This document shows positions 3,110 through 29,834 of a DNA stretch of 64,000 bases, in pieces; within the stretch, counting starts at the first letter, position 1; every line of letters begins with the position of its first letter. Under the pieces are notes generated by a model. That model was not told the origin of the DNA and did no database searches. It was given only the letters and a program-made list of their open reading frames with translations. This stretch comes from Euglena gracilis (lineage: Eukaryota), in NCBI GenBank assembly GCA_039621445.1, contig CP154954.1, forward strand, positions 45,797,847 through 45,861,846, given 5' to 3'. Made by a program: the position numbers and the translations under genes.

Positions 3110-3114
3110 CAAGG

Positions 3115-3543: not shown

Positions 3544-3738
3544 TGGTAGCAGAATAGGTCAAAGATCCTACAGAAAGAAAGGCTACCAGGTAATACACTT
3601 GGTAGCAGAATAGGTCAAAGATCCTACAGAAAGAAAGGCTACCAGGTAATACACTTGGTAGCAGAATAGGTCAAAGATCCTACAGAAAGAAAGGCTACCA
3701 GGTAATACACTTGGTAGCAGATTTAGGCAACGATCCTA
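3544..3738 (+). promoter_or_regulatory. Tandem primer-binding-site array (tRNA-iMet; PBS at 3544, 3600, 3656, 3712; 56-bp unit)
   Basis: TGGTAGCAGA is complementary to the 3' end UCUGCUACCA of non-plant-type eukaryotic initiator tRNA-Met; three identical 56-bp units plus a diverged partial fourth. Confidence 0.88.
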
Positions 3739-3965
3739 CACAGACGTTCCACACAGAGAAACTCTGTGGTTGACTGGTGGTGAGGATCGTACTGAGCCGT
3801 GAAACACGGTGAAAGTACTGTTCCTGGCCCCTAGCCAACCTTTAAGCAAGGATACAGGTCTCAGAAGGCTCTGTTCGGTAATCGCCGATACAACCTTTCT
3901 GGTCCCTGTTTCTCTGCTTATTTGTGTGAATTTTTGGGTTTTTGCCTTTTTACCCATCTCAAAAG

Positions 3966-6900
3966 ATGCAGAGCACAAGCCCCAACCCCAAATTTGATTA
4001 TGACTTGTTGATGAGTTCATTGAGCAATTGTGATGAAGATTGCGGGGATTGGAACGGTTTGAATGAAACAAGTTCCAATTCCCGACCCCCCAAGCAAGAA
4101 GAAGGCAATTTGACTCATTTGTCATTGTCAAAAGGCGAAACGCCTTTATCATTGCATGGGGGTAATGAACCCTCTTCATCATCTTTGTCATTGATTGTCC
4201 GGGATGTAGGTGGCAAAATGCCTTCCTCCATCCCGATTCACCCATCATTGATGCGGCGAGGGGATGAACCCCTTGCACCCCCACACTTGGTTACTCATGT
4301 TACCCATGAACAAAGTGAGGGGTATTTGCCCTTTGCTCTGTTCACACCCAAAAGATCCCCGGTGGAAGCACCGGTGGGCCTTTTGGAGTGCAACTCGGTG
4401 GAAACACCGTGTTTTTTCCAACCCCCCCCTCAATTACCACCCCCCACACCATTTCACGCTTTGCCGGGATTACCCGCGGAAGCTGCGGTTTTCCCTGCAT
4501 TGCCATGGAACCCAGATATGCGTCTGGTGGTGCCGGAAATCTCTGGTGCCGTTTCTATTGTGGAGGACTATGAGGAAGATTTGAGGGATAACCTCACCCC
4601 CGGTGATGTTTTCCGAATTCTCGGTCAACTTCCAGCGGATCACCCGCTTAGCAAGCAAATTTTGCATGTCCACCAATGCGTTGCGGAATGCGCAACCATG
4701 CTCAACAAAGTTTTGCAGTTCGATGAGGACAATCAAAGGGTTGTCAACACCAAACTGGAATGTTGCTGGAATTATTTGCAGGAAATCGGCAAATATTGCC
4801 AACACAATTTTGAAAATGCGGGGAAAGACCTTCAGCATTTTCGAGAAAGTGTTGACAGTATTTTGCGCATCCAACTTCCACAAAATTTCCAACAAATCAG
4901 CGAAATGCTGCATGAAGCGGAAACGCGGAATGATTCCAAGTTTCTGCATGTGCAGGATGGTATGAGCCATCTTTTTGCCCAATTGGAATCCTGTTCAACC
5001 ATGTTACTGCAATTGCAGCAGCAGTTACAAGCGCAAAATGCCACCCCCAAAATGCCGGAAATCGGTAACTTTGTCGCGGTTGAGCATTTTGCCACACTTA
5101 CCACTTCTTTTCAAGAAGCGCAACAACGGATTTTGCATCTTGGCTCGGAAATCGAGCACTTGAAGCAATTTCAAGCGAAAGTGCAAGAGAATTTTGTTCC
5201 CCGTTCGCAAATCCAACTTTTGGAGGAACGAATTTTACACTTGGAGCAAAAATCCTGCCATTGTGCCGCAAATCAGGATGGATTAACCACCTTGAACGCG
5301 AAAATCGCAGATTGCGCACAACGGTTGGATTTTACGCAACAACAAATGCAAACGGACATTGGCGGTATTAATGCCACCGTTGTCGGTTTGCAGGAGCATG
5401 TTTTCGCACTTTCCAAGCGAATTCCCGACATTAGTGGTATTCAAGCCGCTATTGGGGAATTGCAAACCCGTTGCACCTTGTTGTCTACCACAGTGACGGA
5501 AATCCGCTCACTACCCCCCATTTCGCGTGCTCGGATATCCGAGTCACCGGAATTTCGCTCATTTTATGACAAAGTGCTTGGTGACAACAAGGAAACCTTG
5601 CAAGCATTTTGTACAAGTTTGCTCCAAATCGAGGAAAGCGTGAATCGGAATGCCCGATCCATGCAAGATGAGGTTTCTCGGTTGGATGGACGAATTTCTG
5701 CGTTGTTGGAAAAGCCAACCGCGGAAAATTCGCGCACCACCGTGGAAACCCCCAACAAGTCACTCCACCAATTGCAAACCGTCTCAAATGCGGTAAAAGC
5801 GCTTGCGGGTCAACTCCGGAATGTGGAGGAGTCCCAAGGAAATCTTGCCCAAGAATTACAATTGGTTTCTGAAAAGATGCCACACTTGGAAGATTTTTCC
5901 CGTTACCGCAAACGCGTTAGGCATTTGGAGACTGAGGTTGACCGTATTTGCGGCCAACTCCAGTTGGTGGAACATTTGGAAGAAACGGTGCATGACTTGT
6001 CCGCGAGTCTGGATAAAATGTCCACTCCGGTACCGGTTGTGCCACCATCCACCGCGGTAAGCGCTGCGGTTGGTATTCCAAATGTCCCGGAATCGCGTTC
6101 TCAAATTACCATTTCTGGAGTAGGAATCCCTACATCCACTGCGAATTTGGTACAACCACCCGCGAAAACGCGAATTGTACCACCTTTGCATTTGCCAACA
6201 CCACAAACACACTCTTCGCACGACATTTCCGATGAGGAAATTGGCCCCCCCACTCGAAAATTCGAGTCTCCACCAAGAAATTCAACATTCCAACCTTGCA
6301 GGAGTAATGTGCCAACACCCCACACCTGGTATTGGTCATGTGTCGCATTCGCGATCATACCACCAACCGACGGGTTCTGGAATGCCAGACCACCCATCGG
6401 CTTTTCGCCGGGCAACCCGCCCCACTGGGAGGAATTTCACCACATTTTCGCGTTTCCCGCAGGAAAATCCTGCCAACCTTACACTTGGTGCGGGAAATCC
6501 TGCACGGGTTACACATGGAGCGGAAAATCCGCGAAACGCGTTTGGTGTTAAGAATTACCCTGACCCAAACCCCTGGAATACCACCGAGGGTCAGCGGGTT
6601 ACTCAGAGAGACTTCAAGGGCACCATCGCAATCGCGAACAAGGTGAAACCCCAATGGGACGGGGATCCAACCACATGGAGACAATTTTTTCGGGATTGGG
6701 AGTACTATTGGGCACTAAAAGGACCCACCCAAGACCCGAATCCCGAGGTAGTCAAGATGGAATTCATCGATTGCCTACCGAGGGAGGAGCGAGAACGCGC
6801 ACGCAATTTGGTGATACGTAATGGCGTATCATTCGATGACCTGGTTGAGCAATACGCTTCAACCAATTCAAGTCTGGTCACCAGGATTACCCTGGAGAAG

Positions 6901-8043
6901 AAGTGGCGACAAAGCGCGCCATCGGATCGCAAATGGAAATCCATTGACCTTTGGTATGCCAAATGGTTAGCACTTGCTTCCGAAGTTGATGAACTTAGCG
7001 AGAAGCAAATGCGTGAACAATTCGATGCGGTTTTGTTGCATTTCACACCATCCCTCGTGAAGGATATCCATCGCGAGGAGTTGGCAGGGCATGAGATGAC
7101 TCTTGCCCAACGTTGGAATTATGTGTCAAAGCAACTCAAGCTCACACAAGTTTTGGGACAAATACAGTCCGCTTTCCAAACGCATCCCACCGCGGGAATC
7201 CCTGCGGGTGCGGTTAATGCATTGCAAAAATCACCCATGTCACCAAGATCACCCACCACGGGACCGAAAACGCGGAATCAGCGTTCTTCGGACCAGGGCA
7301 CGGATAAACTGTGCTTTTTGTGCAACAAATCTGGTCACATGTCTCGGGAATGCCCGAATCCCGATGCGCGAAAGCGTATTGGAAGCCCAAGGGGCTCGAC
7401 CTCCTCACGGGGATCGGGTTCCTCGGCGTTTTCACGTCAATCGGCAGTTTCACGGTCTTCGGAGAACCGCTTTAGCGGTAGTAGGCCCAAGTCACCATCG
7501 CGTGATGGTCGGGAAACCCGTCCTTCTCGCGGTCGGTCACCTGGCCCCCCTGCCCGAAAACGGGATTTCAACCGCGATTCTTCACGATCTCGTTCGCGAA
7601 GTGGATCATCCTCTTCACGCGAGTCAACGGGGAAGTCCCGATACACCGGTCATGGTCGACGGGAAACCCGTTCACCACGACGGTTTGACGGAAAACCGGA
7701 ATACCGTTCCCCCCGTTATGCGGAATCCCGCCACAAATCCCGTTGTTCACTTTGCGGTTCCAAAGATCACCACGCATCCAAATGTCCCAGATCTCGTTCC
7801 CCCCGGCCCGGCTACGGAAATCGCGGTAAGCGCCGCGATGACCGTGGTTACTCCTCCAACCGGCAAAAGGTCGGTTTCAAGATATCTTGTTTGGAGGAGG
7901 ACACCCCGGCTTCGGGCAGGGAGGGGGATGAGACCTCGGACGGGGAATTTAATGAGGCCCGAATGGCGGTGCGCTCATTGAATTCCATCTATTCCACCAA
8001 AAAGTCCGTTGCCGGCTATGCGGCCGGTTCGGACTTGGAGTAG
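3966..8043 (+). pseudogene. gag: Gag of element B (~1,360 aa; one frameshift near 6245-6260)
   Basis: Start MQSTSPN matches MQSTGPN of A; heptad-rich N-terminal half; capsid-like WDGDPTTWRQFFRDW; zinc knuckles CFLCNKSGHMSREC and CSLCGSKDHHASKC; RS-rich region. A is open across this frameshift position. Confidence 0.88.
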
Positions 8044-8079
8044 GGGAGCCCGAGGTCCGAGGGCACGGACCTCTGGGCT
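8041..8079 (+). promoter_or_regulatory. Putative gag-pol UAG readthrough signal (UAG-GGG plus stem-loop)
   Basis: TAG GGG AGCCC-GAGGTCCG-agggca-CGGACCTC-t-GGGCT; identical in A (25634-25672, minus), where pol is in frame with gag across the TAG. Confidence 0.78.
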
Positions 8080-9480
8080 GATGAACAGATGGAGGTAAGA
8101 CCTGATCAACCTTACCCCCCCTGCCCATCCGCCTTCACGGTCAGTACCCGGAATTATTTCGGGTCCCCTACCCCCACTCCACATTTCCGCTCGGAATGCT
8201 GAGCAAAGTGGGAAAGGGTTCATGGGAGAGCTGGCATGCAAACGTATTTCCGCCAGACCCTTCACTTTGCGTACCACCAATGGAATTACTCGTCCAAGCG
8301 GAAATCCGCATCCAAAATTTCTCCACTAAAGTTAAAATTCTCATTGACACTGGTTGTCGCATTGCACTGCTCTTTCGGTTGGGGTTGATACCGACCCCGC
8401 TCTTGGTAAGCGCCAAGAAACCGATCAAAATTACAACCGCGGATAACACCCCCATGTGTGGTGGTGATTTGGGATGTGTGCTCGAGATACTCTTGCCCAT
8501 CATTCCGAAGCATCACTCACAACCCCCACAATTACAACATTTCACCAATATTTGGGGTTACGAGTCCGGAATTCACGGGTCTGACGTAATTTTGGGATAC
8601 CCATTTTTACGCCAGTACCGATTGGTTGTGGATTGCCACTCCCACGGTTTGCGCACAGCACCCACCACTTCATTGACACCCAAACCACCATCACCGTTGT
8701 CATCCACTATGATGACCACCGCTTTGCCCACACCGTTACCCACAATGGCAACACCGTTACCCACCACACCAACAACCGTTTTCCACACCCGGGGTACGGA
8801 GAAAGCCTCCCCCCTGCCCAATGACACACCAACATGCGTTCCACATGAGGCAGGGCAAGCGAGTAGCGGTACCCCCACCGTTCCACTGGGTTACAAGACG
8901 AAAGCCCAAAGGCCTGAAGTAATTACGGTGTCGAGTAGTCGCCCAGCTACACCACCACTCCGTTTCCCACCAGTTGTGCCGAATCCAGGCACACCTGTAC
9001 AAGACTCACCGGCTAATGCCATCGACACCCACTTTCACGCACACCCGTCACACCATCACACTTCCTTCCAATGTGTGCACTGCAGGAGAATTTCCACCCA
9101 ATCGGATTTCGATTGTGGATGTTTAGTTCAAAATCCGACACTAATCGCAATTCCGAAAACGGAATCCACCACCCATGATACACTTGGTTGTAGCCCGCAA
9201 TGCGCGGAGATACACCGAGTACTCCAACAACGCGGATTAGCCTCGTTGTTCGGAAACCGCGAAAAGCGCGATTCCTAATTACAATCGCGATCACCCTTGG
9301 TACGGATTTGATGCGGAATGGGGAAACCCCCAACCTGTCCAAACTCCCTTGGGATCAACCCTTGTGGTAGTGGAAGACAGCCCGCATGTTTGTGGATCCA
9401 TTCATTGTGTTTCTACCCTTCAACCCGAAAATCGGGTGCATGAATACGCGAAACGCGTATGGAATGCTTTCAATTTTGGT

Positions 9481-9888
9481 CAATATCGCATTTTGGAACG
9501 ATGGTTTTCCAAAATCGCGACATTGGCAAATTCTTTTGATTTGGCATTGGAAATCGATGCCTTTTCATCCAATGCACATGCCCGTTTGCCACGTCATTGG
9601 TCACAACACTCCAACGCATTTGATAAATTTTGGGGTGATACGGTGTTATGGATGCACCCTCCCCCAAAACTTATCGAATGTGCGGTTGAGAAAATTCTGC
9701 GGGATGAAGCCCGTGGAGTTATTCTCATACCCATCATTCCGGAAGCGGAATGGTTCACACAACTATCGTATGTATGTTTTCATTGGTGGGATTTACCCAC
9801 TAATGTACCGATTTTTGAGGATTTTTGTGGTAAAATATTACCACCCTTGCAAGAAATCATTTTTCGCGTATGTTTCTTCGATGCATTC
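9481..9888 (+). other. Dam-like N6-adenine DNA methyltransferase-fold domain inside pol (between PR and RT)
   Basis: EIDAFSSNAHARLPRHWS...NAFDKFW...LWMHPPPKLIECAVEKILRDEARGVILIPIIPEAEWFTQL follows the DIRS1 MT pattern (IDLFAS..N..LP.Y.S...DAF...W...[NF]PP..LI..VL.KI.....ILIVP.W....W...L). Confidence 0.75.
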
Positions 9889-12800
9889 GGAATGTCCGAA
9901 TTCGCGGTGCCGAGGAAGCTCGGTAGCCCCAGGGATACCCTGGCGGTTTCCGCAGTCATCGAGAGTGCAGGTCAGCATCCTAAATCAGCCGAATTCTGTT
10001 CGCGGATTACCCGCGAATTCCACGGTGTGCTGGAAAATCCAGTATACGCGTGCGACATCGACCCCGCGATACGCGGTCCGTTCGGTGTTTGTAAGATCGA
10101 GCTTAAGGATGGAGCAAAGCCAATGCACAGGAAATTTTTTCGTTGTTCGGGAGAACGCGAACAAGCTCTCAATGAAATGATTGAGAAGCTTATTCAGCGC
10201 AAGTGGATTGTACCCTCGAAAAGCGAGTGGACATCCCAGGCATTTGTTGTTCCTAAACCCCCAGACCCCTCAGGTCAGAAGAAATGGAGGCTGGTGCTGG
10301 ATTACCGGTACCTGAACTCCCAAACAAGGGATGATCCCTTCCCGCTCCCCCTGATCGAGGATTTGATCACCAAACAATCGGAAAACCGGTTGTGGTCAAT
10401 TTTCGATCTGGAGGACGGTTTTCACCAAATGCACTTACACCCTGACTCCCAACCATACACGGCATTCGTGACATCCAAGGGTGTGTACCAATGGACGGTA
10501 CTCCCCATGGGTGTTAAGAATGGCCCAGCCATGTTTCAGCGCATGATTCAATGGGTTCTACGCGATTAACCGTTTGCCATTGTGTACATTGATGATGTGC
10601 TGGTGGGAACACCACCACCATCCGCACAATCGAGCGAGGATATCCTCGTCACACACTTCCACCATGTTTGTGCGGTATTAACCGCTTTTCAAAAACATGT
10701 GCTTTTCGCGAAAGGCGCGAAAATGCATTTGTTTCGGATACTTATAAAATTTTGCGGTCACATCCTCAGCAATGGACAGCGGAAAGCCGCTCCGAGTAAA
10801 CTCGAAGCCATTAAGAAATGGACCCCTGAGGTAATCAAAACGATTACTCACCTCAAAGGATTCTTGGGATTAGCCCAATACTACGCGATTTATATGAAGG
10901 ACTTCGCGAAAATCGCGGTGCCCCTCACCAAGCAGCTCAAAAACCGGGCTGTTGACAACACCAAAGTCATTTGGGATGACCAAATGCGCGAGGCCCTTGA
11001 GAAAATCAAGGTTTTGCTTTTGGAGAATGTTGTCCTCGAAATCGCGGACCCGTACAAACCATACGTGTTGGAAGTCGACAGCAGCGATTACGCTGTTGGC
11101 GGAGTTCTTAGCCAGCATAATGCGGCGAATGAGCTCCGACCTGTGGCTTTCTTCAGCAGAAAGTTACAGGGCGACGATGGAAAAGGTCAAGTCAAATGGA
11201 GTATACGCGAGAAGGAAACCTACGCAATCGTGCTTATACTCCAGAAATTCCGAAGCTGGGTAGCCAGCAGCCTCGTCCAGATCCTCGTCAAGACCGACCA
11301 TGAGAGTCTCCAACACTGGTACACCGAGGATTTGAACAAGGCCATGTCATCGGTCGGAAGGCGATGCAGATGGCATGAGTTCTTGAGTCAATTCAACCTT
11401 GTGGTTATCTATACCCCTGGTCACACACAAAAAGTAGCGGATCCGCTCAGTCGGGCCCCTTGGTATTACCCTGGGAACCCGGATGAGGGAGACGCGACTT
11501 TTCATGGAAGTCAGGAAGCTGACGACTACGCACGTCGAAACGACGCTGCGGATAATCTTTTGGATTCTTTTCCCGTTTCACAACTATTCCTGGTCGCACC
11601 AGTGCGAGGAAGGCGCCGACGTGGAAGCACGTCCGGGCCCCGGCGTATTACGCGCACGGAGTCCCCTTCTCCACTGTTCTTTCGCGAATGGGATTATAGT
11701 CGTGATCCGGTGTATGACACCATTGTCACCAGACTTCGTAATGGCGAAGTGCTGGACAATTACACTCTTTCACCTTTACGGTTGGTTTTTCGCAATGAAT
11801 CGGGTTACAAATATTGTATCCCCCAGGACCTGGTTGATGATGTGATTTTGTGTTATCACAACCATGGTCACCCTGGGGCCCCCAAACTTCTTTCGTTGGT
11901 GGGCCGCAGGTACTGTACAACCCTGAGCGAGAAAGAGCTTTACTCACGCTGTTTGCGAATAGCGCAACGGTGTCAAATTTGTCAAGCGGTAAAACCCCGC
12001 AGAGGTACCCCCCCTGGTACGATGGATTTTTTTCCCGTACCCCCTGACATTTTTACATCCCTCTGCATGGATTTTCTGGAATTGGAACCGTGCAAAGGAA
12101 CAGACGACAAAATTTACGATTACGTTTTTGTTGTCGTCTGCAGGCTGAGTGGGTACATTGTAGCCATTCCATGCCAGAAGTCAGGGTTGACTGCCCAAAG
12201 TTTGGCAACTATATTTTTGGAGAAATGTATTTGCTTGATGGGTTTACCGAATGAAATCGTGAGTGATCAAGACCATTTGATTTCTTCAAGGTTTTTCACC
12301 ACTTTGTGCGGTTTACTCGGAATCGAGCAACATTTTTCCATTATATACCGACCCAAAGGCAATGGTAGAGCCGAGGCAGCCGTGAAATCCGTCGTGAATA
12401 TGCTTCGCCTTTCACTGGCTGACTCGCGCAGCAACTGGATATCAGTTCTACCATGGTCTTTGTTTTATATCAATACCCTACCAGGGTTGGTTTTACCTCA
12501 CTCCCCCTATAAATTAGTTTTCGGACGGGACCCTCCGGCCATAGGGGATGTCCCTTCGGAGAGACCCGCCCGAACGAGTGTCAGTTGCGAGACCTGGTTT
12601 GCGGAAGTAGAAAATCTACGTTCTGCAGTCCAGAAGCGCGTCACTGATATTCATGCAGCAAAACGGAAATCGTTTTTGCAGAATTTCAAGTCACCTGTTT
12701 ACAGCCCCGGTGACCGCGTGTGGGTACGGAATAGCCGTACTCGCATGCAGTCTTCCAAGCTGGACCCCCTCTGGCTCGGCCCCTGTGAAATCCTAGAAAG

Positions 12801-12954
12801 ACTAGGTACCAGCGGGCGTTACAAGGTTGCATTACCGAATGGTGTTGAGGACGTTCATATGGACGACTTCAAACCATACCTGTCGCCACCGGATGGGAAA
12901 CCCATCCCGTGTTTGCACTTCAAACCCCGTTCCAGATTACCTGAGACGGACGAC

Positions 12955-13120
12955 TTTGTAGTCGATAAAATTATCGATCACAAAATCGACAAAGGTATGC
13001 ACCTTTGGAAGGTCCGCTGGAAAGGGTATGGGCCCGAGGAGGACACTTGGGAGCCAGCAACCAGTTTTGTTGGGTATGTCCAGCAAGATTGGAAGCTGTG
13101 GAACAAGAAACATAACATTG
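12955..13120 (+). other. Chromodomain at the integrase C-terminus
   Basis: [34 protein letters not shown] with canonical aromatic-cage residues F/W/Y; also present in A (about 24020-24190, minus). Confidence 0.92.
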
Positions 13121-13305
13121 ATGTTTCCATGACAAGTTTTTGAGAACGCATGGGAAACCCATGTTGTTTTCTCTTCTTTTTATCATTGATTCTTATCATT
13201 CTTTCTTTCCGCAGACTTTTTACCAAATAATACTCAAGCGGTTACCCTCACACACCTTACAACCAACAACCCAAACATCCCACCGTACCGACCCCGGGCT
13301 GTATC

Positions 13306-16300
13306 ATGCTGCCCGGCGGAAGGGAGCCAGGCGGAGGACCGCCTTACCACCCCACCACTCACCCTCAACCTGACCAGTATGCGTACCGATACGGTACGCA
13401 GCCACCTGCACGGACTGCGGCTCAGGGAAACCCTGAAGCCAGCAGCAGTAGCAGGATGACCCAGATGCCCGCGGAAGCGCGGCCATCTCAGCCATCAGGC
13501 TCTCGTCGCCTCCCACCGTATGCGGGTGTGATGATCCACCGCACGGCGGAGACGATGAACCGGGTTATGCGTATGAGCGCAAACCCGGCACCAGACCAAC
13601 TCACACAGGCATTGTGGGATGACCACTGCCGTAAAGTTTTGACCATCGCGAATACCCCTCCAGCCCTGTGGTGTATGTGCGCCCAGGCGACGATGACCGG
13701 TCTGGTGTATTACACCGACCCGGACGCGTCGGGTTTCGCGGCAGACATTACCATGCGTGACCTGGGCGTGGAAGTCCCGCCACAGGTCGCCAGGCAGGTA
13801 CCACCTGTTGGCACTTACACTGCACATTTTCGTGCTCACTCCCCCGGATTACCCGAGGAAGAGACGGTGGAAGCACCTGTCCGGAGTGAACACCCACGTG
13901 TAAAAGAAAGCATTTTTCGATCCCCTGAGCGCGTGCCCCGGCGGGATTATCCTGCGCAGGAGCCTGTGTCTCAGTATACCGTCTCTGGGGATTACCCCCA
14001 GCAGGCGCCAATGCCACGGGATCAGTACGTATATCCACCTCAACCCCACCCAACCATACCTGACCCTATCCCACGACGTCCTGCGGAGGGAAATCCTCCC
14101 CCGACGTCTGACTCTGCCCGAAGCGCTCGTCCGCGGGAAGCCGCGACAGCGCCTCGTGCGGCACCAGTTCCCCCGGCACGGGATGAACCCGTTAACCCGT
14201 GGACTGGTCGGCCGTTCGAGACTGAGGAGGACCGTCAACAGTATGAATATGCTGTGACGATCCAACGACAAATCGCACGTCGCCCCCCTGTTTCCGCTGG
14301 CCAGGGATACCCTGCCCGGGCGGAAATGACACGGGAAGAGCGCCAGCAGTATGATGCTGCTGTGTCGGCTCTCACAGGAGTCCCAGCTCCATCACGGTCA
14401 AGTCAACCAGCGCAACAGCGGGACGTGGCTGTGGCGGAAGCGCCACCAGCACGACCCACAAGCTCTGCCGCCGGCAAACGTGACCGCGGCCCGGAAAATC
14501 TGACGCCGCAGCCACAACGCCGCTCGCCGAGGTCGGAAAATCCGCCCGCGGCGATGCGCGTCGACGCTGAGGAGGAAGCTCCGCCAGCGCCCGACGTGAC
14601 GGCAGAACGGGCACGTCGGGAAACCCGACCATCCCCAGTCGCACCGGTTTACTCGAATCGTGGTGATGCTGAGCAGGAATTTGCTCGAACACCAAGCACG
14701 GAATCCGTGACTTATCCTGTGTATACAGAAGAAGACCCAGAATACTGGGAATATTGGGACCCATATCGGGCGACGATAGAATGGCTGTCCAACACGAAGG
14801 GCAAGGGTAAAGGAAAAGGCAAGGGTAAGGGTAAAGGTAAAGGCCAGGAGAAAGGTGGGAAAGCCCCATCTGGGAAAGGCGGAAAACCCGCTGGACCACC
14901 TCCAGGCAAAGGCGGAAAATCTGCCGGACCCCCAGCAGGAAAAGGCGGAAAAGCCGCCGAACCTTCGAAAACGAAGGATTACGACGCTGACCAGCTGTTC
15001 GATTACTTGGATGAAATCTGGCCGAAAATCGACCAGGATCTCGAAAAGTACACGCGTGCTGGCAACGTGATCCACCGACCACCGGAAGCGGTGCTCGCAG
15101 TGGTGCAGGATCGTATGCACGATCACTGCAAACGATTCATCTACAGTACCGAACTTCATCCGTTTGAGGGATACCCTCATTCGGATGAAATGGTCCTGGA
15201 CCAGATGTCTGGTTTCTGGGAACTCTGGTTCTGGTTGGGATATCCCTGCCAGAACTTTGGCATTTTCACCGACCGAAACGGTCTGACATACATCGATTGT
15301 TTGAACACATGTGAAGACGATGAAACATTCGTAGCACAGTTGAAGGAAATCTTCAACCACATGTATTCCGTCAGCGCACTGGGAATCCAGTGGAAATATT
15401 ACCCCCTGCCGGAGAAACTCCAGGCGCAGGCTGCGGTAATGTTCACAAACAACCTCCAAGTATTCTTGGACAGCATGTATGGCATGCTGTTCAAGGTACT
15501 GGACGTGGACCTCGCCTACCCTCAACGATACAAACTGGAATGCCGGTTTTGCAAGGAAGTCCACATTGTTGACTTCTGGGGTTTTGGGGAGCGCGGAAAA
15601 CCGCCTCCGACTGCCGAGAATGCCGGCAGCCCACCGACCAGGAGATTCCTCCTGCACCAGTGCCGGAAACCCCAGATCGGAACGCAAGACCGGAAGGTGC
15701 TGAAACAGCACCGGCAGAAAATATTTCTGCTCCAACAATACTGGCACAGGGCGTGGATTACCTACGTCCTGGAAGTATATATATATTTCCTGGAACAGAT
15801 GACCACCGATGTGGATATCCACAGGAAGTGGATACCTCGGGGATACACCGAGGTAGATGCCAGACCGTATGATCCAGACCGACGCAGGATAAACCTGCGG
15901 CCGGACTGGACGGGGGCAGAAATCGGCCTCCGGGAACACCTGCAGAGCCAGTTCGGGGAAATCCTGGACTGGCAGGAGTTCGAAGTGTTCTTCGCTCCCC
16001 GCGAGCTAACCCAACCTCGCTACGCAGTACCACTGCCAGCTTTCCTGGAAGAAACGGGAGAGTACGGTATGGGTGAGACTCGTCGATCGCAGTGGGAAGA
16101 CCTCTGCCTGATCAACGAGGATGAGCCTCAACCTCCACCCGGAAGCTGGGTGCGAGCGTCGTGGCCACCTCCATACCCCAACTCTGACAGGAGTGAAAGT
16201 ATTAGCTTTTTCCGCCTGTCAAATGCCCAAGGGTGCTACAGAAGCAGGGAAGACCCGCGTTCTGCAGCCCAACTACACACAGAGGAGTCCCCTCTGGAAG

Positions 16301-18750
16301 CGGAGGAGACAGGAGAAGCGGTCCCAAGGGCCGAGGATGAACCTCTGCCTGCGGAACCCCCGGCACGGGAAACCCGTAGCCCGTCGGTCGTGATGCTGGA
16401 CACTGTGGCGGAAACCGCCCAGCGCCCAGGATCACCGAGAGGTGAACTGACGCCTGTCCCACTGTCACCATCCTCGCTGGGTACGCCTGGCGGACCGACC
16501 CCTCCGCGGGAAAACCCGCCGGAGACGGTAACCCCTACGCCTGAGGTATTACGCCTCAAGCTTCCTGTCCCCGGGGAAATCCCGACGACAGAGGAGCCAG
16601 TGGAGGAACCCACTTCAGGGGAAGGACCTGAACGGCGCCCCTCACTGGGCGGACGTGTACTCGGCGGTTTGCGATCACTGATCGCAGTTGTCACACCACG
16701 TGGCACTGCGGCTAGTTCTTCCACTGCTGTGGCGGAAACGGCCCAGCCAGCGGACGAAACAACTGAAGCTGCAGCCATGGAGGAGGATGAACTTCCCCCA
16801 ATAGCCGCGCCACCGTCGGTGTCGGAAACGACACGGACGGAGGGCGAACCAACGGCAATGTCAGTGGTGACAACGCTACCCGTGCCAGTGCAGGATGAAC
16901 CTGCATCAGCACCGGTAGCGACATCAGAGGCACGGGATGAGCCCGTAGCTCCACACACATCGGCCACTGCACCGAAGCGTGCGGACACACGGACACCGGC
17001 ACCTGAAAAACAGGCTGCACGGACATCCATGCCCCCACCACAAACTCAGCCAACGCGGAGTGCAGCGGCGACGCCCACACCCACACCGTCCCCCAAGGCT
17101 GCTCCTGGGAAACCCACGAGCGCAGCGAAAGAACGCGTAGGGCGACCCTCAGCTCGGGAAACCCCTGCTGAAGGTCAACGACGCTCGGTGTCGGGGAAAA
17201 GACCCCCGGCCCAGCCGTCACCACGCACCTGGTCAAGCAAGCGTGACGCCGAACGGCGACCCTCGGATGCTCCGGAAAGCGGAAGTCCGAAGGCCCCGGC
17301 CAAATCAAAACCCGGTGCCGCGCCTTGCAAACCCTCACCTAAGACAGGTGATCAGCCCCCACCGAAAGGCGGTGGTGGTACTGGAGGCCAGGGTGCATCT
17401 TCTTCTCGAGGATCATCCTCGGGAGGAGGATTCACACAGGTCACATCATCCGGCTATGGAAAAACCTCACAGCCAAAACCACCTACGAAGGGGCAGGGAA
17501 AATCCCGCGCCTCTACAATTACGACACCTTCGGAAGGCGAAGTTGTCATCGACTGGAATGCGATGACTCAGGATGATCCTGAGACTCATGACCTGAAAAA
17601 CAGGTACATGATGATCGAACACAAGCTGCGAACAGACCAATGTCTTAATCGGTGGATTGAACCACTGTTCTGTCAAGGACGGAAATGGTCCTTTGACCAG
17701 AATGTCACCTGGAATTATTACAATTCCAGATCACCACGTGTTTTGGCCCAATACTTTGGCGAGGAATTCCTCGTCGACAGAACATCGGAAAACCGATTTG
17801 TGTGGCTTTGCACTGTTTGCCACAGGATGTACAACAGTGCCCCTGACTTGGGATTACCCCTCGTCCATGTGTGCAACCCTGTGGAGCGGAAATCGTTCCA
17901 CAAGGATATGTACATCCCCAACTGTGCCGCCTTGGTATGCGCCAAGTGCGTGGACAGTTGGACCCACAAGCACAATTTTAGCTACACGGACCGAGATGGT
18001 ACGAATGTACCAGTACTCTGCGTCAACTGCCTGCGAGGTACCTTCTGGCACACTGCGGAAGGCGCAGTTCGCACAATCGTGCCGAGTGCCGAGAAGCCAC
18101 TGGAGGAATACTCCACCTTGAACAAAAAGTTCAAGGACTTCTTCAAGTATGCCAACCTCAAGCTGGACGACTACCGCCACACGGGAATGGCCCGTGGGTG
18201 GCAGATCGACAGTGGGGCGATACGCCTCGCTGCTGAGGAGGCAGGGGTAAGATTACCTTACCTCTGGGAGACAGCAGACAGGGAAAAGATACTTTTCCGC
18301 CTGTTCACAACCCAGGACCGAAACGGTCGCTGGTGCCTACCACAATGGCCGCCCGAAAAACACGGGATGACCTGGAAGGACTGGCTAGGGGCCGTATTGC
18401 GACCCCATACCGTCCGGGCGGAATGCGCCTATCACGTTCCCATTGACTTCCACCCGGGGAATGCCCCGCAGGTGTCAGCCAACCACCCTCGGAGAAACTA
18501 CTTCATCTGGCCAGCGACTTTGCCCAGGAAATTCTGGGAGAAGCTGCAGTGGTTTCTCGCGGAAAGAGCGAGTGCCACCAAGCAGACAGTACCCGAAGGA
18601 TGGGTTCGGGACTGGATCGCACCTGATTTCGACTATGACTCGCCAGAAACCTGGCTTGTCGACAGGCCACAGCCACCACAATTCCAGATGGTCCTTGTGG
18701 AAGATCCCTTGGACTCCCGCCATGACTATTGGCGGCTGGAGCGGATGTAA
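13306..18750 (+). CDS. ORF3 of element B: 1,814-aa protein of unknown function (Pro-rich disordered linkers, GK repeats, two Cys/His-rich globular modules)
   Basis: Uninterrupted 5.4-kb ORF between pol and the PPT; homolog in A shares the start (MLPG) and conserved blocks (PPYAG.MI.RT.ET, GFWELWFWLGYPCQN, LAYPQRY.L.C..C, RSPRVLAQYFGE). Confidence 0.92.
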   Translation: MLPGGREPGGGPPYHPTTHPQPDQYAYRYGTQPPARTAAQGNPEASSSSRMTQMPAEARPSQPSGSRRLPPYAGVMIHRTAETMNRVMRMSANPAPDQLTQALWDDHCRKVLTIANTPPALWCMCAQATMTGLVYYTDPDASGFAADITMRDLGVEVPPQVARQVPPVGTYTAHFRAHSPGLPEEETVEAPVRSEHPRVKESIFRSPERVPRRDYPAQEPVSQYTVSGDYPQQAPMPRDQYVYPPQPHPTIPDPIPRRPAEGNPPPTSDSARSARPREAATAPRAAPVPPARDEPVNPWTGRPFETEEDRQQYEYAVTIQRQIARRPPVSAGQGYPARAEMTREERQQYDAAVSALTGVPAPSRSSQPAQQRDVAVAEAPPARPTSSAAGKRDRGPENLTPQPQRRSPRSENPPAAMRVDAEEEAPPAPDVTAERARRETRPSPVAPVYSNRGDAEQEFARTPSTESVTYPVYTEEDPEYWEYWDPYRATIEWLSNTKGKGKGKGKGKGKGKGQEKGGKAPSGKGGKPAGPPPGKGGKSAGPPAGKGGKAAEPSKTKDYDADQLFDYLDEIWPKIDQDLEKYTRAGNVIHRPPEAVLAVVQDRMHDHCKRFIYSTELHPFEGYPHSDEMVLDQMSGFWELWFWLGYPCQNFGIFTDRNGLTYIDCLNTCEDDETFVAQLKEIFNHMYSVSALGIQWKYYPLPEKLQAQAAVMFTNNLQVFLDSMYGMLFKVLDVDLAYPQRYKLECRFCKEVHIVDFWGFGERGKPPPTAENAGSPPTRRFLLHQCRKPQIGTQDRKVLKQHRQKIFLLQQYWHRAWITYVLEVYIYFLEQMTTDVDIHRKWIPRGYTEVDARPYDPDRRRINLRPDWTGAEIGLREHLQSQFGEILDWQEFEVFFAPRELTQPRYAVPLPAFLEETGEYGMGETRRSQWEDLCLINEDEPQPPPGSWVRASWPPPYPNSDRSESISFFRLSNAQGCYRSREDPRSAAQLHTEESPLEAEETGEAVPRAEDEPLPAEPPARETRSPSVVMLDTVAETAQRPGSPRGELTPVPLSPSSLGTPGGPTPPRENPPETVTPTPEVLRLKLPVPGEIPTTEEPVEEPTSGEGPERRPSLGGRVLGGLRSLIAVVTPRGTAASSSTAVAETAQPADETTEAAAMEEDELPPIAAPPSVSETTRTEGEPTAMSVVTTLPVPVQDEPASAPVATSEARDEPVAPHTSATAPKRADTRTPAPEKQAARTSMPPPQTQPTRSAAATPTPTPSPKAAPGKPTSAAKERVGRPSARETPAEGQRRSVSGKRPPAQPSPRTWSSKRDAERRPSDAPESGSPKAPAKSKPGAAPCKPSPKTGDQPPPKGGGGTGGQGASSSRGSSSGGGFTQVTSSGYGKTSQPKPPTKGQGKSRASTITTPSEGEVVIDWNAMTQDDPETHDLKNRYMMIEHKLRTDQCLNRWIEPLFCQGRKWSFDQNVTWNYYNSRSPRVLAQYFGEEFLVDRTSENRFVWLCTVCHRMYNSAPDLGLPLVHVCNPVERKSFHKDMYIPNCAALVCAKCVDSWTHKHNFSYTDRDGTNVPVLCVNCLRGTFWHTAEGAVRTIVPSAEKPLEEYSTLNKKFKDFFKYANLKLDDYRHTGMARGWQIDSGAIRLAAEEAGVRLPYLWETADREKILFRLFTTQDRNGRWCLPQWPPEKHGMTWKDWLGAVLRPHTVRAECAYHVPIDFHPGNAPQVSANHPRRNYFIWPATLPRKFWEKLQWFLAERASATKQTVPEGWVRDWIAPDFDYDSPETWLVDRPQPPQFQMVLVEDPLDSRHDYWRLERM

Positions 18751-19627: not shown

Positions 19628-19643
19628 AGCCCTGGGAGGGGGA
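19628..19643 (+). promoter_or_regulatory. Polypurine tract of element B
   Basis: AGCCCTGGGAGGGGGA directly before the 3' LTR. Confidence 0.88.
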
Positions 19644-20072
19644 TGTGTACCAGGCACGTCCCAGCTCTGTAGGATATCTGCAGAGTGGGTTCTGTGACGG
19701 TCGCACCACTGTGGAAACCCACAGCTGGTAAGATCGTGGCAGACCCTTCTGGGATCTGCCCCTGGACACGTCAGCACTTTTCTCTCCTTCCCCCACAGGT
19801 GGTATTCTTTACTCTCACAATCTCCAAGTTTCACCTTTGGATTTGTCAGAGGGAAAAACCCTCAGAACAATCAACTTTGATCTCAGAAGAAAACTTCTGA
19901 ATCTTTGCTTTGTGCTTTGCCTCTTGGGGAATTGGGAAGAAAAGGGGAAAACCACTTTTCGTTACTCCAAAGACTTTTCCCTACCATAAGTAGGCTGCGC
20001 ACCAAGGCGAAAGCGAAAGGCTTTTACAGAAAGTCCCAAAAAGGGAAAAAGGGAAAGCTTTGGACGTACACT
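19644..20072 (+). repeat. 3' LTR of element B
   Basis: Direct repeat of 3115-3543 (3 substitutions by eye). Confidence 0.96.
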
Positions 20073-23000
20073 CAGGGACCCTGCGCGGTGTCGGTGGTCG
20101 TGGGGGTATCTCCTCCACTTCCATTTCGACATCCGGTCTAGGAGGTTGATCCTCCACAACCGCTGGCGCAGGTGCTACAGGAGGTTGATCCTCCGCTGTA
20201 GCCGGTGCGACAGATGGCTCTGTCGGCTGGGGTTCATCCCCTGAAGGTGGTTGCACTGTTGCCGGAGATGGGGGTGTGGGGACACCGACATCTGGTGTCT
20301 CCACGACCTCAGCGGCGGAGCTTGATGCTACACCTCCACCTCGTGGCGTTAGTGCAGCAGCCACGGCAGTAATGCCAGTGACCACGGCGCCGAGCACACG
20401 GCCTCCTAACGACGTGCGTGCTGTGGGACTGGCAGGTTCTTCGAGGATATCCTCGACGACCATACCAGTCACCTCGGCTGGAGGCTCAGCCGTTGGAACA
20501 GGCGTAGCAGCCACAGGTATATCCCCTGCGGGTGCTTCGTCTGGCCGAGGCTGTGCCGGAGCATGCAGAGCAGCGTAGAGGATATCCTCCACGTTCTCAC
20601 CTTCCTCCTCAGGAAGTTCCTGTTCTCCACCTACCGGTGGACAGACGGGAGCCGTCGCGGGGGCCGGGGAAACCGATCTTTCCCCTGCCGCTCGCGGGGC
20701 AGAGACGAAGGATACAGCCGTTCCTGTCGGAGACGGCGGCGCTGCCTCCAGAATGGTGACAGAGGGGCTGCGGTCGCGTTCCTCCCGCCGCGGAATCGCG
20801 GTGGTGGAAGCGACTGACGCCTCCCGTCTCCTTCGCGCCAGAGGTTCATCCTCTGGGGCGATGAAGGCGCGCAGATCCTCGGGCGAACGAGGATCGTCGG
20901 GGTGCCATCGGCATCCCTGGGCATCCGCCAGCCTGTAAAAGGCCAGCGTACTGCTACTGGCGCTGTTGGGCCAGGGTGGCGGCCATGATGGCTGCACCCA
21001 AGCGTTTGCAGGCCTGTTCGGGCCCAGGAAGCCGCGATAACGCGTGTCTTCCCAGACCTCGAAAAACCCGTCCTCGAACTCCTGCACGCATGCCAGAATC
21101 GGCATACCCAGGTCGAGGATGGCCTTCGGGTGATTCATCAGCTGGAGGAATACCTCCCTGTCGAGGGTACCGCCAAACTGTCGCCTCAAATGTTCCTCCA
21201 GGTCTATCCCGGCCAGGTGCCAGTTGGGGCGCAGGTCGGCGATAACCCGACGACGACGAGGTCCCTCAACGGGGTCGCCGTAGTCTGGTGGCAAGCTTTC
21301 CATACCAGGCCTATCGTCCTGGGGGTCACGGAGATGTATATACACCTCCATGACGTAGGTGGTCCAGGCTCGCCACCAGAACTGTTGCAGCATAAAAATA
21401 CGCTGCTTGTGGACGCGGCGACTTTTGCCCTGGACATCCGGGGCGTCGCGGCACACATGCATAAGCATGCGGCGTCCCATCTCCAGGCCCGGGTTATCCC
21501 GAGGCGGTGGAGGACTTCCGCGCACGCCGAATCCCCAGAAGTCGACAGGAAATTCCTGCCGGCAGTACTTACAACAGAGGTCATACCTCTGTGGGTAAGC
21601 CAGGGAAACGCGCTTAACGCGGAAGGTGGAGCCGTAATGGCTCACCAGCCACACCTGGAGGTTGTTGCACCACAACACCTCGATCAGGCGTTCGATGTCG
21701 GGGTTCAGTGGGTAGTATTTCCACTGCACACCGAGGGGCCCGACTGTGTGAATACAGTCGAAGATTGCCTTCAGCCTTCGGGCCAACACATGCTGGTCCC
21801 GAAATCCTAACTGGTGCAGGTAACTGCGGCCAGTGGAGTCGCTGAAGAGACCCCAGTTCTGGCAGGGGTATCCCAGCCAAAACCAGAGTTCCCAGAAACC
21901 CGGCTGGGCATCCAGCAAGGGTCTGCCACCTTCACCTTCGAAGGCGTACAGGTCAATTCCGTAATGGAATTGTCTGACTCTGTTTTCGGTGTGGTGTAAT
22001 ACCACCTCGATGACTGCCTCCGGAGGGGTGACGGGGCGGTTTCCTGCAACATGGTAATCATGCTGCATTCGCCAGCCTTCGTCCTCCAGCTCCTCCTTGA
22101 ACCTGAGCATTTGCTCAAAGTCCGAGAGGACTTCTGCTGGTTCTTCCTCCTCCTCACGGGCTGTACCCTTACCCTTGCCCTCACCCTTACCTTTGCCGGC
22201 CACGCCTTTGCCTTCTCCCTTGCCTTTGCCCTCAGCCTTACCTTTGTCCTTCCCTGTCTGGCGAATACCAGAGGGTCGGGCGCTCGGTGCGGCAGGAGTC
22301 GGTTCGGTACCTTCCCATTCCATCTCTGGGGAGGGACCTTGTCGTTCCGCTGCACGTCGCGGTGACGGCGTGGTTGGGCGCTGGCTAGGAGCCTGGCGTG
22401 GGCTTGGTTTCGGCGTAGGGGGTCGCGGCTCCTTCCATACCGGAGGGATCGGCGGAGGCATTGCGGCAACAGGACGGCTCATCGCTGCCTGTGCCACTGC
22501 CGGTGGTTGCCCGGCCAGGGTATCCTGGCTGGCTTCCACCTGCATTGCCGCACCGCCTTCCGCGTCCCGTGGGCTGGGTCGCCTGGGCTGTGGGGTAAGG
22601 TTCTCCGTAACCCTATCGCGCTTCAGGGTGGCAGGTAATCCTGCCGCTCCTGCCGGGGGCTCACCGGGTAATACCGGGGTCGCCACCCGCAGCTGCGGCT
22701 GGTACGGATGGTAGGGGGTGTATCCACGACCCTGAAGGGCGGCCAGCGAGGAGTAATACCTCGCCCGGTGCTCTTCAGACGTGAATACTGGCTCCTGCAG
22801 GAAATGCCGAGCAAGCTCATCCTGCTCGGTTCCCGGAGGTGCCATGTGGTAGTAGGGAGCCTCCTGCCGACGGGGGACATCCCCAGTCTGGACAGGGGCT
22901 GCACTGGGCGGTCGGGCTGCCTCACGGTGGGGAGGTTCATCCTCCACCACTATGGGCTCCTCCTGCCTCCGTGGCTCAACGCCAGGGGCAGGGGCGACCG

Positions 23001-23802
23001 ATGATGCTTGTGGCATCCAGTGCATGAACATGTGTTGGACGTATGCCTCAGAGGGCACGTCCGACTGTCCGGCTGGGAGCACGCGTGCGCCGCGCGGGTA
23101 ATCCGCGTGCGTCGCGTACCGCGAGACAAATTGCTCCGCTGGCGGCTCGCGCGGCGGCATTCGCTGCGGCGAGGGCGGGCGAGCAAAAATTCTCGTCATC
23201 CCAGGTGGGACATGCACAGCCTCACCTACCGGTGGGGGCGTGTGCTCACGCATATGCACGGTGTGGGATCCCACCGGCGTCTGCGTTTGCAGCATGGGCG
23301 GCACATACACGCCCAGGTCCATCATGGTCTCGCCGGGTTCGAAGCCGGAATCGGCTGCGGACGAGAAATACCGTCTGCCCGTCATCAGGGCTTGACCGCA
23401 GGGACACCACTGAGCCACAGGGGTGTTGGCTACCACCAACAGCTGAGCACAGTATGCATCCCAAAGGGCTTGCATAAAGGGCTCCGTTGGGGGGTGTGCG
23501 CACATACGCATCGCCCGCTCCAACGTCTCCGTAGTGCGGAAGATCATCTCTCCCGCATACGGGGGCAGGCGCGATCTGCGCTGCACTGGTGGCTGAGGTG
23601 CCGGCTGTTGGACGGCAGATGGATCTGGTACCGCATATGCGGACCGGCTGCTGGTAGCCGCGGCGAATACCGGGGCTGAAACCCTCTCAGCATGTGGGGC
23701 ACCCGGAATCGGGGCCTCAGCATACTGAGGGTACTGAGGGTATGGCGCGCCAGAAGGCTGCGGCCATGGTGGACCTGGTCCAGGTCCGCGCCCAGGCAGC
23801 AT
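20073..23802 (-). pseudogene. N-terminal part of ORF3 of element A (about 1,838 aa when rejoined)
   Basis: Homologous to ORF 13306-18750; cut by the 3' LTR of B. Confidence 0.9.
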
Positions 23803-23998
23803 GATGCTACCCGAACGACGACGACAACTAAGGATAACCTTGTTGTCAGTCGATTTGAGTGCGAGAGCACTGAAAAAGCAAGGCTTCTATCTTAATCAAA
23901 ACTCTGCGAGAAAGATAGAGAAATAATGAAGTGCAGGGGGGGGGTATAAACGCGAAACATTCACGTAAAACACACGCATTCTCCAAAACGAAATCGTT

Positions 23999-25669
23999 TC
24001 AGAAAGTGTTTATGTTTATGTCTATGTTATTGCGCTTGTTCCACAGCTTCCAATCCTGTTGGACATATCCAACAAAACTGGATGCTGGCTCCCAAGTGTC
24101 CTCCTCTGGCCCATACCCTTTCCAGCGAACTTTCCAGTAGTGCACACCCCTGTCGACCTTGTGGTCTATTATCTTATCGACCACAAAGTCGTCCGTTTCA
24201 GGTAATCTGGAACGGGGCTTGAAATATAGGCAGGGGATAGCTTTTCCGTCTGGGGGGCTTAGGTACGGTTTGAAGTCGTCCATATGGACGTCCTCAATCC
24301 CGTTGGGCAAGGCAACTTTATATCGCCCGCTACTACCTAACCTCTCCAAAATTTCGCATGGGCCGAGCCAAAGAGGATCTAGCTTGGAAGATTGCATGCG
24401 GGTGCGGTTATTCCGTACCCACACGCGGTCACCTGGACTATACACAGGTGTGTTGAAGTTTTGTAAAAACGATTTCCGTTTGTTGGAATGAATTTCTGTG
24501 ATACGTGATTGGACTTCGAAGCGGAGTGATTCCACTTCTGCAAACCACGTTTCACAGCTAACGCTACTTCGGGCGGGTCTCTCCGAGGGGATATCCCCTA
24601 TGACCGGAGGGTCTCGTCCGAAAACAATTTTGTACGGTGAGTGTGGTAATACCAACCCTGGCAAGGTATTGATGTAAAAGTTGGGATGCGCTTTTGTAGC
24701 TGCTGGGGGGTGTACAGATGTATCTGAAAGCGATACATCTGGTGGAAAACGTGGTATTAGTGCAGCTGGGCGACTACTCGACACCGTGACAACTTCAGGC
24801 CTTTGGGCTTTCGTCTTGTAACCCAGTGGAACGAGGGGGGTACCGCTACTCGCTTGCCCTGCCTCATGGGGAACGGAAATTGGTGTGTCAATGGGCAGGG
24901 GGTGAACTTTCTCGGTACACCCGGTGTGGAAAACGTTGGTTGGTGTGGTTGGTAACGGGGTAAAAGTTTTCGAAAACGGTGTGGAAAAATTGGTGGCTGT
25001 CGCGGTTGACGCCACGGGTGATGAAGGTTTGGGGGGCAGTGAAGAGAATGGTGATGTGCGCAAACCGTGGGAGTGGCAATCCACTACCAGCCGGTGCTGA
25101 CGAAAAAAGGGGTATCCCAGGATTACGTCAGAACCGTGGATTCCGGATTCATATCCCCAGGTATCCGGAAAATTTTGCGGTTGGGGGGGGTGTGAGTGGT
25201 GCTTGGGGATGAGGGGTAGGACTATGTCCAAAAAGCATCCCAAGTCACCACCGCACATGGGGGTGTTGTCAGCCGTCGTAATTTTGATCGGCTTCTTGGC
25301 TTTCACCAAGAGGGGGGTTGGTATCAACCCGAACCGAAAAAGTAGTGCAATGCGACAACCAGTGTCAATGAGAATTTTGACTTTTGCACAAAAATTTTGG
25401 ATTTTGATTTCCGCTTGGACCAAAAGTTCCATGGGGGGTAAGCAAAGTGAAGGGTCTGGCGAAAATACGTTTTCTTGCCAGCTTTCCCATGAACCCTTTC
25501 CTACTTTGCACAACATTCCGAGCGGAAAGTTGGAGTGGGGGGTGGGGGACCCGAAAATTTTCCGGGTACCGACCAGGAAGGCAGATGGGCAGGGGGGGCA
25601 GGGTTGATCAGGTCCTACCTCCATCTGTTCATCAGCCCAGAGGTCCGTGCCCTCGGACCTCGGGCTCCC
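23999..25669 (-). pseudogene. pol: Internally deleted pol of element A: protease fused in frame to integrase C-terminus and chromodomain
   Basis: ILIDTGC followed, at a junction near 24680 ([12 protein letters not shown]), by sequence matching B integrase from about 12463; MTase-like domain, RT, RNase H and IN core are absent. Confidence 0.9.
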
Positions 25670-29646: not shown

Positions 29647-29834
29647 CTTTCTGACGACAAAAACAGCAAAAACCCACAAAACTAAGCAGTTGTGCTGGCA
29701 CCAGAGGGGCTGTAACGGGTAATACCGTACAGAGCCTTCCGGAGCCTGCTCGTCTGCTTAGACGTTGACTAGAAGCCGGGAGCTGACGCTGCGACCGTGT
29801 AATAACGGTGCAGGGGCTCTCCGCTGCCAGTCAG

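Follow-up and report, generated by a model that had tools for sequence, protein, structure and literature searches.

What does a retrotransposon keep in the position of an envelope gene, if the protein encoded there does not look like an envelope? The question is raised by a 64,000-nt stretch of the Euglena gracilis genome (assembly GCA_039621445.1, contig CP154954.1, positions 45,797,847 to 45,861,846 of the forward strand), here called the window, in which two long terminal repeat (LTR) retrotransposons are nested, element B on the plus strand lying inside the third open reading frame (ORF3) of element A on the minus strand. ORF3 of B is encoded in the env position, i.e. inside the element on the sense strand between the end of pol (13143) and the start of the 3′ LTR (19644), and an initial annotation made from the letters of the DNA had taken it for a selected accessory protein and not an envelope protein. 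We are confident that ORF3 is a real accessory gene and not env, and regard it as probable, with distinctly less assurance, that its product is an accessory protein which stays inside the cell and represents a new family; the splice route, location and role we infer from the features described below.

ORF3 is a conserved gene of both elements

The ORF3 of B occupies a stop-to-stop frame of 13231-18750 (+) and, from its first ATG at 13306, is fully open for 1,814 amino acids (aa) up to the stop ending at 18750, just as the initial annotation had stated; its estimate of about 1,838 aa for the homologue in A without B was borne out as well, since removal of B and of one 5-bp duplication leaves exactly 1,838 aa in a single frame. 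Direct joins of 3109 to 20073 were found in contigs from three of four public sequencing runs, indicating that an uninterrupted A-type ORF3 is present elsewhere. The two ORF3 copies are 34% (first part of A) and 40% (second part of A) identical by blastp, with an overall range of 34-47% and with 45-50% in three islands, N-terminal, central and C-terminal, for which a tblastn search of B ORF3 against the pieces of A yielded E values of 5e-31, 1.5e-83 and 6e-99. By codon position, the identities between A and B were 0.57, 0.62 and 0.36 for the first, second and third positions, respectively, the third thus being the most diverged.

A non-functional frame, open by chance or by virtue of a G+C-rich and purine-skewed composition, has in its favor the G+C content of 0.58 and the strong A-over-T skew of the region, in which long frames, the largest of 535 aa, are open on the antisense strand as well. 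Against it stand the probability of 1,814 open codons expected from base composition (P ~10^-27.4), a second and likewise open copy at 34-47% identity, the tblastn matches of the islands, the remote homologues described below and the least conserved third codon positions; a chance frame was rejected on these grounds, and we assign it a negligible probability.

The ratio of nonsynonymous to synonymous divergence (dN/dS) between A and B points in the same direction as the codon positions. By NG86 it was 0.33 in the N-terminal island (dS 1.23), 0.21 in the C-terminal domain (dS 2.2) and 0.21 over the whole ORF3 (dS 2.8), and by maximum likelihood (ML) 0.215 and 0.152 in the N-terminal and C-terminal islands, all of these being well under 1 and rough owing to near-saturated dS. 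NG86 returned 0.27 (dS 2.6) for the linker of residues 1001-1435, and was not calculable for the linker of residues 191-575 and for the central domain, where dS was saturated (by ML as well for the central domain, dS ~20); for the Pro-rich linkers ML gave 0.08 versus 0.70 by YN00, so that the values of the linkers and the central domain carry no meaning. Elsewhere in the elements, the A versus B dN/dS was 0.22 in gag (dS 0.81), 0.32 in the protease-like part (dS 0.50), 0.06 in the integrase C-terminus plus chromodomain (dS 1.39) and 0.29 in the 5′ coiled-coil ORF (dS 1.29). With ratios of ~0.15-0.33 versus 0.22, the ORF3 islands are thus about as constrained as gag, and the selection proposed in the initial annotation agrees with the two open lineages, the codon-position pattern and the island dN/dS alike. 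As a side observation, dS is uneven along the elements, being 0.50 in the protease-like part, 0.81 in gag, 1.29 in the 5′ ORF, 1.39 in the integrase C-terminus and 1.2 to saturated in ORF3; this may stem from recombination between lineages, which is kept here only as an observation because the spread of dS overlaps.

The initial annotation had further set the open ORF3 against a gag-pol with at least four lesions. Those lesions are real, comprising three frame changes (~6124-6551, ~8043-8170 and ~9241-9278) and one in-frame stop (10567-10569); the contrast itself is unremarkable, because by simple arithmetic four lesions placed evenly across gag-pol (9.2 kb) and ORF3 (5.4 kb) would all miss ORF3 with P ~0.16. 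An open ORF3 beside a broken gag-pol therefore says little, and it is the deep conservation that provides the real evidence. A further support comes from element A, in which both gag and ORF3 are open despite the loss of reverse transcriptase (RT), RNase H and the integrase core.

Islands, putative zinc knuckles and relatives of the ORF3 protein

The architecture of the predicted protein is that of three conserved islands (aa 67-190, 576-1000 and 1436-1814) separated by diverged Pro-rich linkers, as the initial annotation had outlined it, and the two linker motifs that it had called conserved, KRDR..ENLTPQP.R.SPR and SLGGRVLG, are present in both A and B, along with the further short motifs KPGAAPCKP and SSGYG. 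The linkers span 385-435 aa, with only 0-4 aromatic or Cys residues per 100 aa (residues 1001-1400), and are probably disordered; besides a Gly-Lys repeat, ORF3 also has one short basic cluster. For the possibly nuclear function proposed in the initial annotation, this repeat (aa 497-549) and the basic cluster are the sole hints. Across the family the central domain keeps YPQxYxxxCxxC..DxWG..R..HxC invariant, and the C-terminal domain keeps CTxCH, HxC, NCxAxxCxxC, CxNC and PGxPPQ..ANHPRxNYxIWP, with a ligand spacing of CxxC, 15 aa (10-16 in relatives), HxC, ~21 aa, CxxC, ~23 aa and CxxC. From their pattern these Cys/His motifs are read as two successive putative zinc knuckle pairs. A RING or PHD cross-brace was considered and rejected because ligand pairs 2 and 3 lie far apart in the C-terminal domain, while in the C3HC4 spacing they are separated by 2-3 residues; no Pfam RING match at E≤1 was found among the 18 family members scanned, and the weak RING rows in BFVD had E values of at least 0.25. 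An internal duplication was likewise rejected, the central and C-terminal domains being unrelated by hhalign (probability 0.2%).

Three well-bounded islands on linkers with few conserved short motifs could also be the mark of a polyprotein, whose linkers would be cut by a protease of the element or the host to release three small proteins with different tasks, a reading that does not exclude the others. Such processing is the rule for the gag-pol of LTR retrotransposons, and the lack of kinship between the central and C-terminal domains would suit it. No cleavage sites are known for ORF3, and the domain order is kept as a single ORF in distant relatives, which fits one multidomain protein equally well; we consider the polyprotein quite unlikely.

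Membrane features were judged by Kyte-Doolittle hydropathy in 19-residue windows only. By this measure there is no N-terminal signal peptide, the N-terminus (MLPGGREPGGGPPYHPTT...) being polar and Pro/Gly-rich, and no membrane-spanning helix conserved among the A and B copies, the maximum in B ORF3 being 1.16; a single window of A, GGRVLGAVVTGITAVAAAL at the SLGGRVLG segment, touches 1.60, the usual threshold of a membrane helix, and its counterpart in B, with an Arg in the middle, reaches 1.05. The hydrophobic stretch following SLGGRVLG (16642-16720, +, in B, and the matching part of A ORF3) was seen to end in TPRG and to sit within a long, probably disordered linker. It is conceivable that this stretch anchors a degenerate or unconventional envelope or another membrane-associated protein, as the env position, a likely spliced mRNA like that of env and the A window would allow. 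Yet the N-terminal signal-like hydrophobic segment is absent by hydropathy, the stretch is poorly hydrophobic and interrupted in B, the CxxC/HxC knuckles in which the cysteines are arranged are typical of zinc sites in intracellular proteins, and Pfam (0 matches) and Foldseek against viral models and the PDB (nothing at E≤1e-3) returned no envelope; an anchored protein of this kind appears very improbable. The earlier view of ORF3 as lacking an obvious signal peptide or transmembrane helix and as an accessory, not an env, gene accordingly stands, with no env or host family matched in the searches described here.

The relatives of ORF3 were collected by scoring a C-terminal-domain profile against 1.84 billion representative proteins, which yielded 24 proteins at E≤1e-3, of which 11 reached E≤1e-10 and a single one E≤1e-30; a Pfam scan of 4 of the 24 revealed 2 false matches (cadherin and DUF7507), and the weak row P0023 (E 4.4e-4) is counted among the 24 and was not assessed. 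The sources of 25 proteins were two E. gracilis transcripts, ten ENA, eight JGI/IMG, four Logan and one NCBI entry, the last being a false match. Most relatives are short fragments, but two environmental proteins, P0017 (2,207 aa) and P0026 (2,294 aa), have a central and a C-terminal domain that match those of B and are arranged as in B. The C-terminal end ..VEDP..D.W of B recurs in some relatives, e.g. P0005, which overlaps with P0003 as a near-identical variant; P0012 and P0014 are without some of the cysteines. Searches with the central domain, whether alone or in the form of a 5-row profile, had P0027, an 83%-identical fragment, as their sole match, and a word-indexed search with the C-terminal region among proteins of 1,011-3,219 aa gave 0 matches. 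P0017 (aa 1688-2202) and P0026 (aa 1775-2285) were also observed to share an extra C-terminal block of ~520 aa, 29% identical to each other, which found no match in Pfam, NCBIfam or the PDB and no counterpart in the window.

Judged by the databases compared, the family is nameless. Pfam returned 0 matches for ORF3, P0017, P0011, P0009 and P0003, and at E≤1 only sub-threshold zinc-ribbon matches (best E 0.062) for 18 rows of the family alignment A6; NCBIfam returned 0 for P0001, P0017 and P0026; the PDB returned 0 by sequence, by profiles of the family alignments A6 and A4 and by phmmer with P0011; and VIA-align had no match. In the ESM Atlas the best score of the C-terminal part was 0.81, i.e. 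at chance level, and the central part had no usable match. AlphaFold2 modelled the C-terminal domain at a pLDDT of 67.3 and a pTM of 0.62, and Foldseek with this model retrieved nothing at E≤1e-3 from the PDB or viral models; the central domain model was poor (pLDDT 46.1).

Transcription, a candidate splice acceptor and the proposed role

Two of the relatives are E. gracilis transcript entries in EukProt, of which P0002 matches the C-terminal part of A ORF3 except for one difference noted by eye, while P0006 shares 32% identity with B ORF3; the ORF3 lineages are therefore transcribed. How a frame behind pol would reach the ribosome is suggested by the pol-ORF3 spacers, both of which hold a pyrimidine tract ending in CGCAG, with no ATG between the CAG and the ORF3 ATG; A and B also have the start context ATCATGCTGCC and an N-terminal MLPG in common. 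If a site is defined as a CAG whose preceding 40 nt are at least 80% pyrimidine, the sense strands of B (16,958 nt) and A have a single one each, in the pol-ORF3 spacer, and the two strands of the whole window together have 9. Spliced-leader trans-splicing is common in Euglenozoa (PMC2920757, in the part available), and together with the lone acceptor-like site this suggests that the pyrimidine tract plus CAG is a candidate 3′ splice or trans-splice acceptor, from which a spliced or trans-spliced subgenomic ORF3 mRNA would arise.

The explanation that we prefer would run as follows. ORF3 is a genuine gene of a chromodomain-bearing Ty3/gypsy lineage, kept by purifying selection, and would be translated from a subgenomic mRNA that is made by cis-splicing or by spliced-leader trans-splicing at the lone acceptor 91-101 nt upstream. 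Its product would be a protein of ~1,800 aa with three folded islands (N-terminal, central and C-terminal), putative zinc knuckles in the latter two, and Pro-rich linkers bearing the Gly-Lys repeat and the short motifs; it would stay inside the cell and serve the element's own cycle, possibly in RNA handling, at particle assembly sites, in nuclear entry or integration, or in escape from host silencing. More specifically, it may act for the benefit of that cycle as a scaffold which depends on zinc and associates with nucleic acid or chromatin; we put this forward tentatively, and as somewhat less likely than not.

Several points weigh against this explanation, in addition to the hydropathy of the one A window. 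The A/B dS is near saturation (pS 0.60-0.78; ML dS 1.8 to above 20). The environmental relatives are known here from protein sequences and not from a retrotransposon context, and of the 147 and 176 pattern matches obtained in two scans of metagenome contigs for the genomic context of relatives not one was confirmed. No database match assigns ORF3 a function, and with models of moderate or poor quality the absence of fold matches is weak evidence. For the splice route, the acceptor criterion was picked after the sites had been seen; no spliced joint at 13214 is among the joints listed from the contigs of four runs; and one contig, from RNA library X17, extends from 12706 to 13604 and includes the unspliced spacer, 66 nt of its length being replaced. 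These four runs are Logan contigs, three of them only guessed to be RNA, from which expression level, strand and transcript ends are not readable; the X18 contigs leave two ORF3 bins without cover, a gap that is uninformative.

Carrier elements, origin of ORF3 and comparison with known accessory genes

The features of both elements are collected in Table 1. Pfam on the six frames of B (E≤0.01) detected RVT_1 (E 1.2e-18), RT_RNaseH_2 (E 6e-24), rve (E 5.9e-10) and Chromo (E 4.4e-10), along with a CCHC knuckle, an integrase zinc-binding domain and a Tf2-type SH3; the RT, RNase H, integrase and chromodomain matches identify B as a chromodomain-type Ty3/gypsy element. Its two LTRs differ at 4 positions over 429 bp. 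Contig joints in two runs (20066 to 3650 and 20066 to 3706) connect the LTR end to a point two or three units further into the 56-nt tandem repeat of the leader, indicating other copies with fewer units.

Table 1. Coordinates of the two nested elements and of their ORF3 features in the window
Feature	Position	Strand	Remarks
5′ LTR of B	3115..3543	+	429 bp; 5-bp target duplication CAAGG at 3110-3114
56-nt tandem repeat, leader of B	3538..3740	+	3.6 copies, 97% matches; primer-binding-site-like TGGTAGCAGAA in each unit
gag-pol of B	3930..13143	+	Coiled-coil N-terminal part, CCHC knuckle, RT, RNase H, integrase, SH3, chromodomain; broken
Pyrimidine tract plus CAG of B	13172..13214	+	82.5% C+T over 40 nt; 91 nt before the ORF3 ATG
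ORF3 of B	13306..18750	+	1,814 aa plus stop
N-terminal island	13504..13875	+	aa 67-190; RRLPPYAG...
Linker motif KRDR..ENLTPQP.R.SPR	14476..14532	+	aa 391-409; kept in A and B
Gly-Lys repeat	14794..14952	+	aa 497-549; GK runs also in A, P0007 and P0017
Central domain	15031..16305	+	aa 576-1000; GFWELWFWLGYPCQN and the family-invariant YPQxYxxxCxxC..DxWG..R..HxC
SLGGRVLG motif	16642..16665	+	aa 1113-1120; in both copies; followed by a moderately hydrophobic stretch
C-terminal domain	17611..18747	+	aa 1436-1814; CTxCH..HxC..NCxAxxCxxC..CxNC, PGxPPQ..ANHPRxNYxIWP
3′ LTR of B	19644..20072	+	429 bp; 5-bp target duplication CAGGG at 20073-20077
LTRs of A	~190-498 and 29927-30237	-	
ORF3 of A, second part	1323..3109	-	Stop at 1323-1325
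ORF3 of A, first part	20073..23802	-	ATG at 23802; interrupted by the insertion of B
Pyrimidine tract plus CAG of A	23904..23946	-	82.5% C+T over 40 nt; 101 nt before the ORF3 ATG
gag and truncated pol of A	23999..29757	-	Protease-like part in frame with integrase C-terminal SH3 and chromodomain

Element A looks like a non-autonomous derivative. In it, an in-frame internal deletion leaves one 556-aa frame at 23999-25669 (-), in which the protease-like part is 76% identical to aa 4-291 of the B frame 8106-9278, and the integrase C-terminal SH3 plus chromodomain 86% identical to B aa 632-857. Gag and the next frame of A are in the same reading frame with one stop between them (25670-25672, -), and the B gag frame ends (8041-8043, +) at the residue homologous to that stop, so that the gag-pol junction looks to be of the read-through type in A and B. 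Ahead of the CCHC gag part both elements carry a long coiled-coil-like frame (B 3930-6551, +; A 28060-29757, -), ~50% identical between them, which matches NPV_P10 (E 5.1e-8 in B, 1.8e-4 in A); the frame switch to the CCHC part is not located at the same position in the two elements. Just upstream of RT in B, a weak match to Dam (PF05869) was noticed at 9520-9762 (+), i.e. aa 94-174 of the frame 9241-10569, with an E of 3.1e-4 and 20.9 bits, under the Pfam cut-off of 28.1; the motif [DNS]PP[YFW] was looked for in that frame and not found, the closest string being HPPP. In the rest of the window, outside both elements, 9 additional frames with a length of 200 aa or more had no Pfam match, and no tRNA genes were found.

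In the literature searched, the structure of Euglena elements is treated only in the preprint 10.64898/2026.05.21.726589, which describes the DAM-LTR and EpiLTR elements of the same host species, Ty3-like with a chromodomain as B is. A possible further likeness of B to DAM-LTR is the weak, sub-cut-off Dam match just before RT, in a frame where no DPPY-type motif was found; a DNMT domain, which marks the EpiLTR subset, was detected by Pfam neither in the six frames of B (E≤0.01) nor in three frames of A. The text of that preprint, as far as it was available, makes no mention of ORF3 or an accessory ORF; its supplementary figures may show one.

In its placement ORF3 resembles the env-like ORF3s of errantiviruses and plant Athila/Tat elements and the additional ORFs (aORFs) described in the available part of PMC7264820: it is encoded on the sense strand between pol and the 3′ LTR, has its own ATG, is conserved across lineages under purifying selection, and would probably be expressed from a spliced subgenomic RNA as they are. 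It differs from them in lacking, by hydropathy, a signal peptide and a conserved membrane helix, and in showing no similarity to an env or described aORF family in the searches made. At 1,814 aa it is also much larger than is usual for env-like ORFs, and it combines putative zinc-knuckle domains with linkers that are very long and probably disordered. Non-structural proteins encoded downstream of pol that act on element RNA or replication sites are familiar from the caulimovirus P6 (transactivator/viroplasmin) and from the accessory proteins of complex retroviruses; with these ORF3 shares no detected sequence or fold similarity, and the comparison is an analogy only. The ORF3s of bdelloid rotifer LTR retrotransposons (PMC5408684, in the part available) are likewise non-env extra ORFs after pol that are shared by diverged lineages; no sequence relation to them turned up, and they are set apart from the Euglena ORF3 without a direct comparison.

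The rotifer elements, as presented in the same source, also show that LTR retrotransposons can capture extra ORFs, and ORF3 might be such a captured cellular gene, of a family mainly at home in euglenid or other protist hosts, taken up before the A/B split and carried since as a passenger or used against the host. The long, stand-alone predicted proteins P0017 and P0026, with their extra ~520-aa domain absent from the window, would fit this, as would the G+C content of 0.58-0.63 in ORF3 versus 0.48-0.54 in the gag-pol of the same elements. What speaks for a long-standing component of the element instead is that A and B, at 34-47% identity, share the position, the start context and the upstream pyrimidine tract plus CAG; moreover, several relatives have a multi-copy or decayed look (P0003/P0005; P0012 and P0014), and no annotated host gene family was matched in Pfam or NCBIfam. 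A captured host gene is in our view rather unlikely, and an intracellular accessory protein of the element remains the preferred explanation.

A bolder version of that explanation, which we hold to be doubtful though worth stating, is that ORF3 founds an ancient euglenid, perhaps wider protist, family of retroelement proteins, a modular zinc-binding scaffold with short and long (third-domain) architectures, which would be needed for replication or for evading silencing based on 5-methylcytosine and 6-methyladenine (5mC/6mA), and which would be delivered by spliced-leader trans-splicing of genomic RNA. Even short of that, ORF3 defines a family that is unnamed in Pfam and NCBIfam and to which no solved structure is detectably related. 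That LTR retrotransposons can carry extra ORFs was already known; new are the ORF3 protein family and its size, by which the range of accessory genes of these elements is extended to a very large, non-env, putative zinc-knuckle protein in a protist. According to the available part of PMC11252322, LTR retrotransposons occupy between 21.8% (its Table 4) and 32.8% (its text) of the 2.37-Gb assembly of E. gracilis. Given this share, a 5.4-kb third gene that is conserved, transcribed and retained even by a copy lacking RT and integrase represents a large unexplained coding load. To our knowledge a trans-splicing route to a subgenomic retroelement mRNA has not been described, a point for which the literature was not searched. 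If the candidate acceptor is indeed used in spliced-leader trans-splicing, the retroelement would exploit a host-specific mRNA pathway to express its downstream gene.

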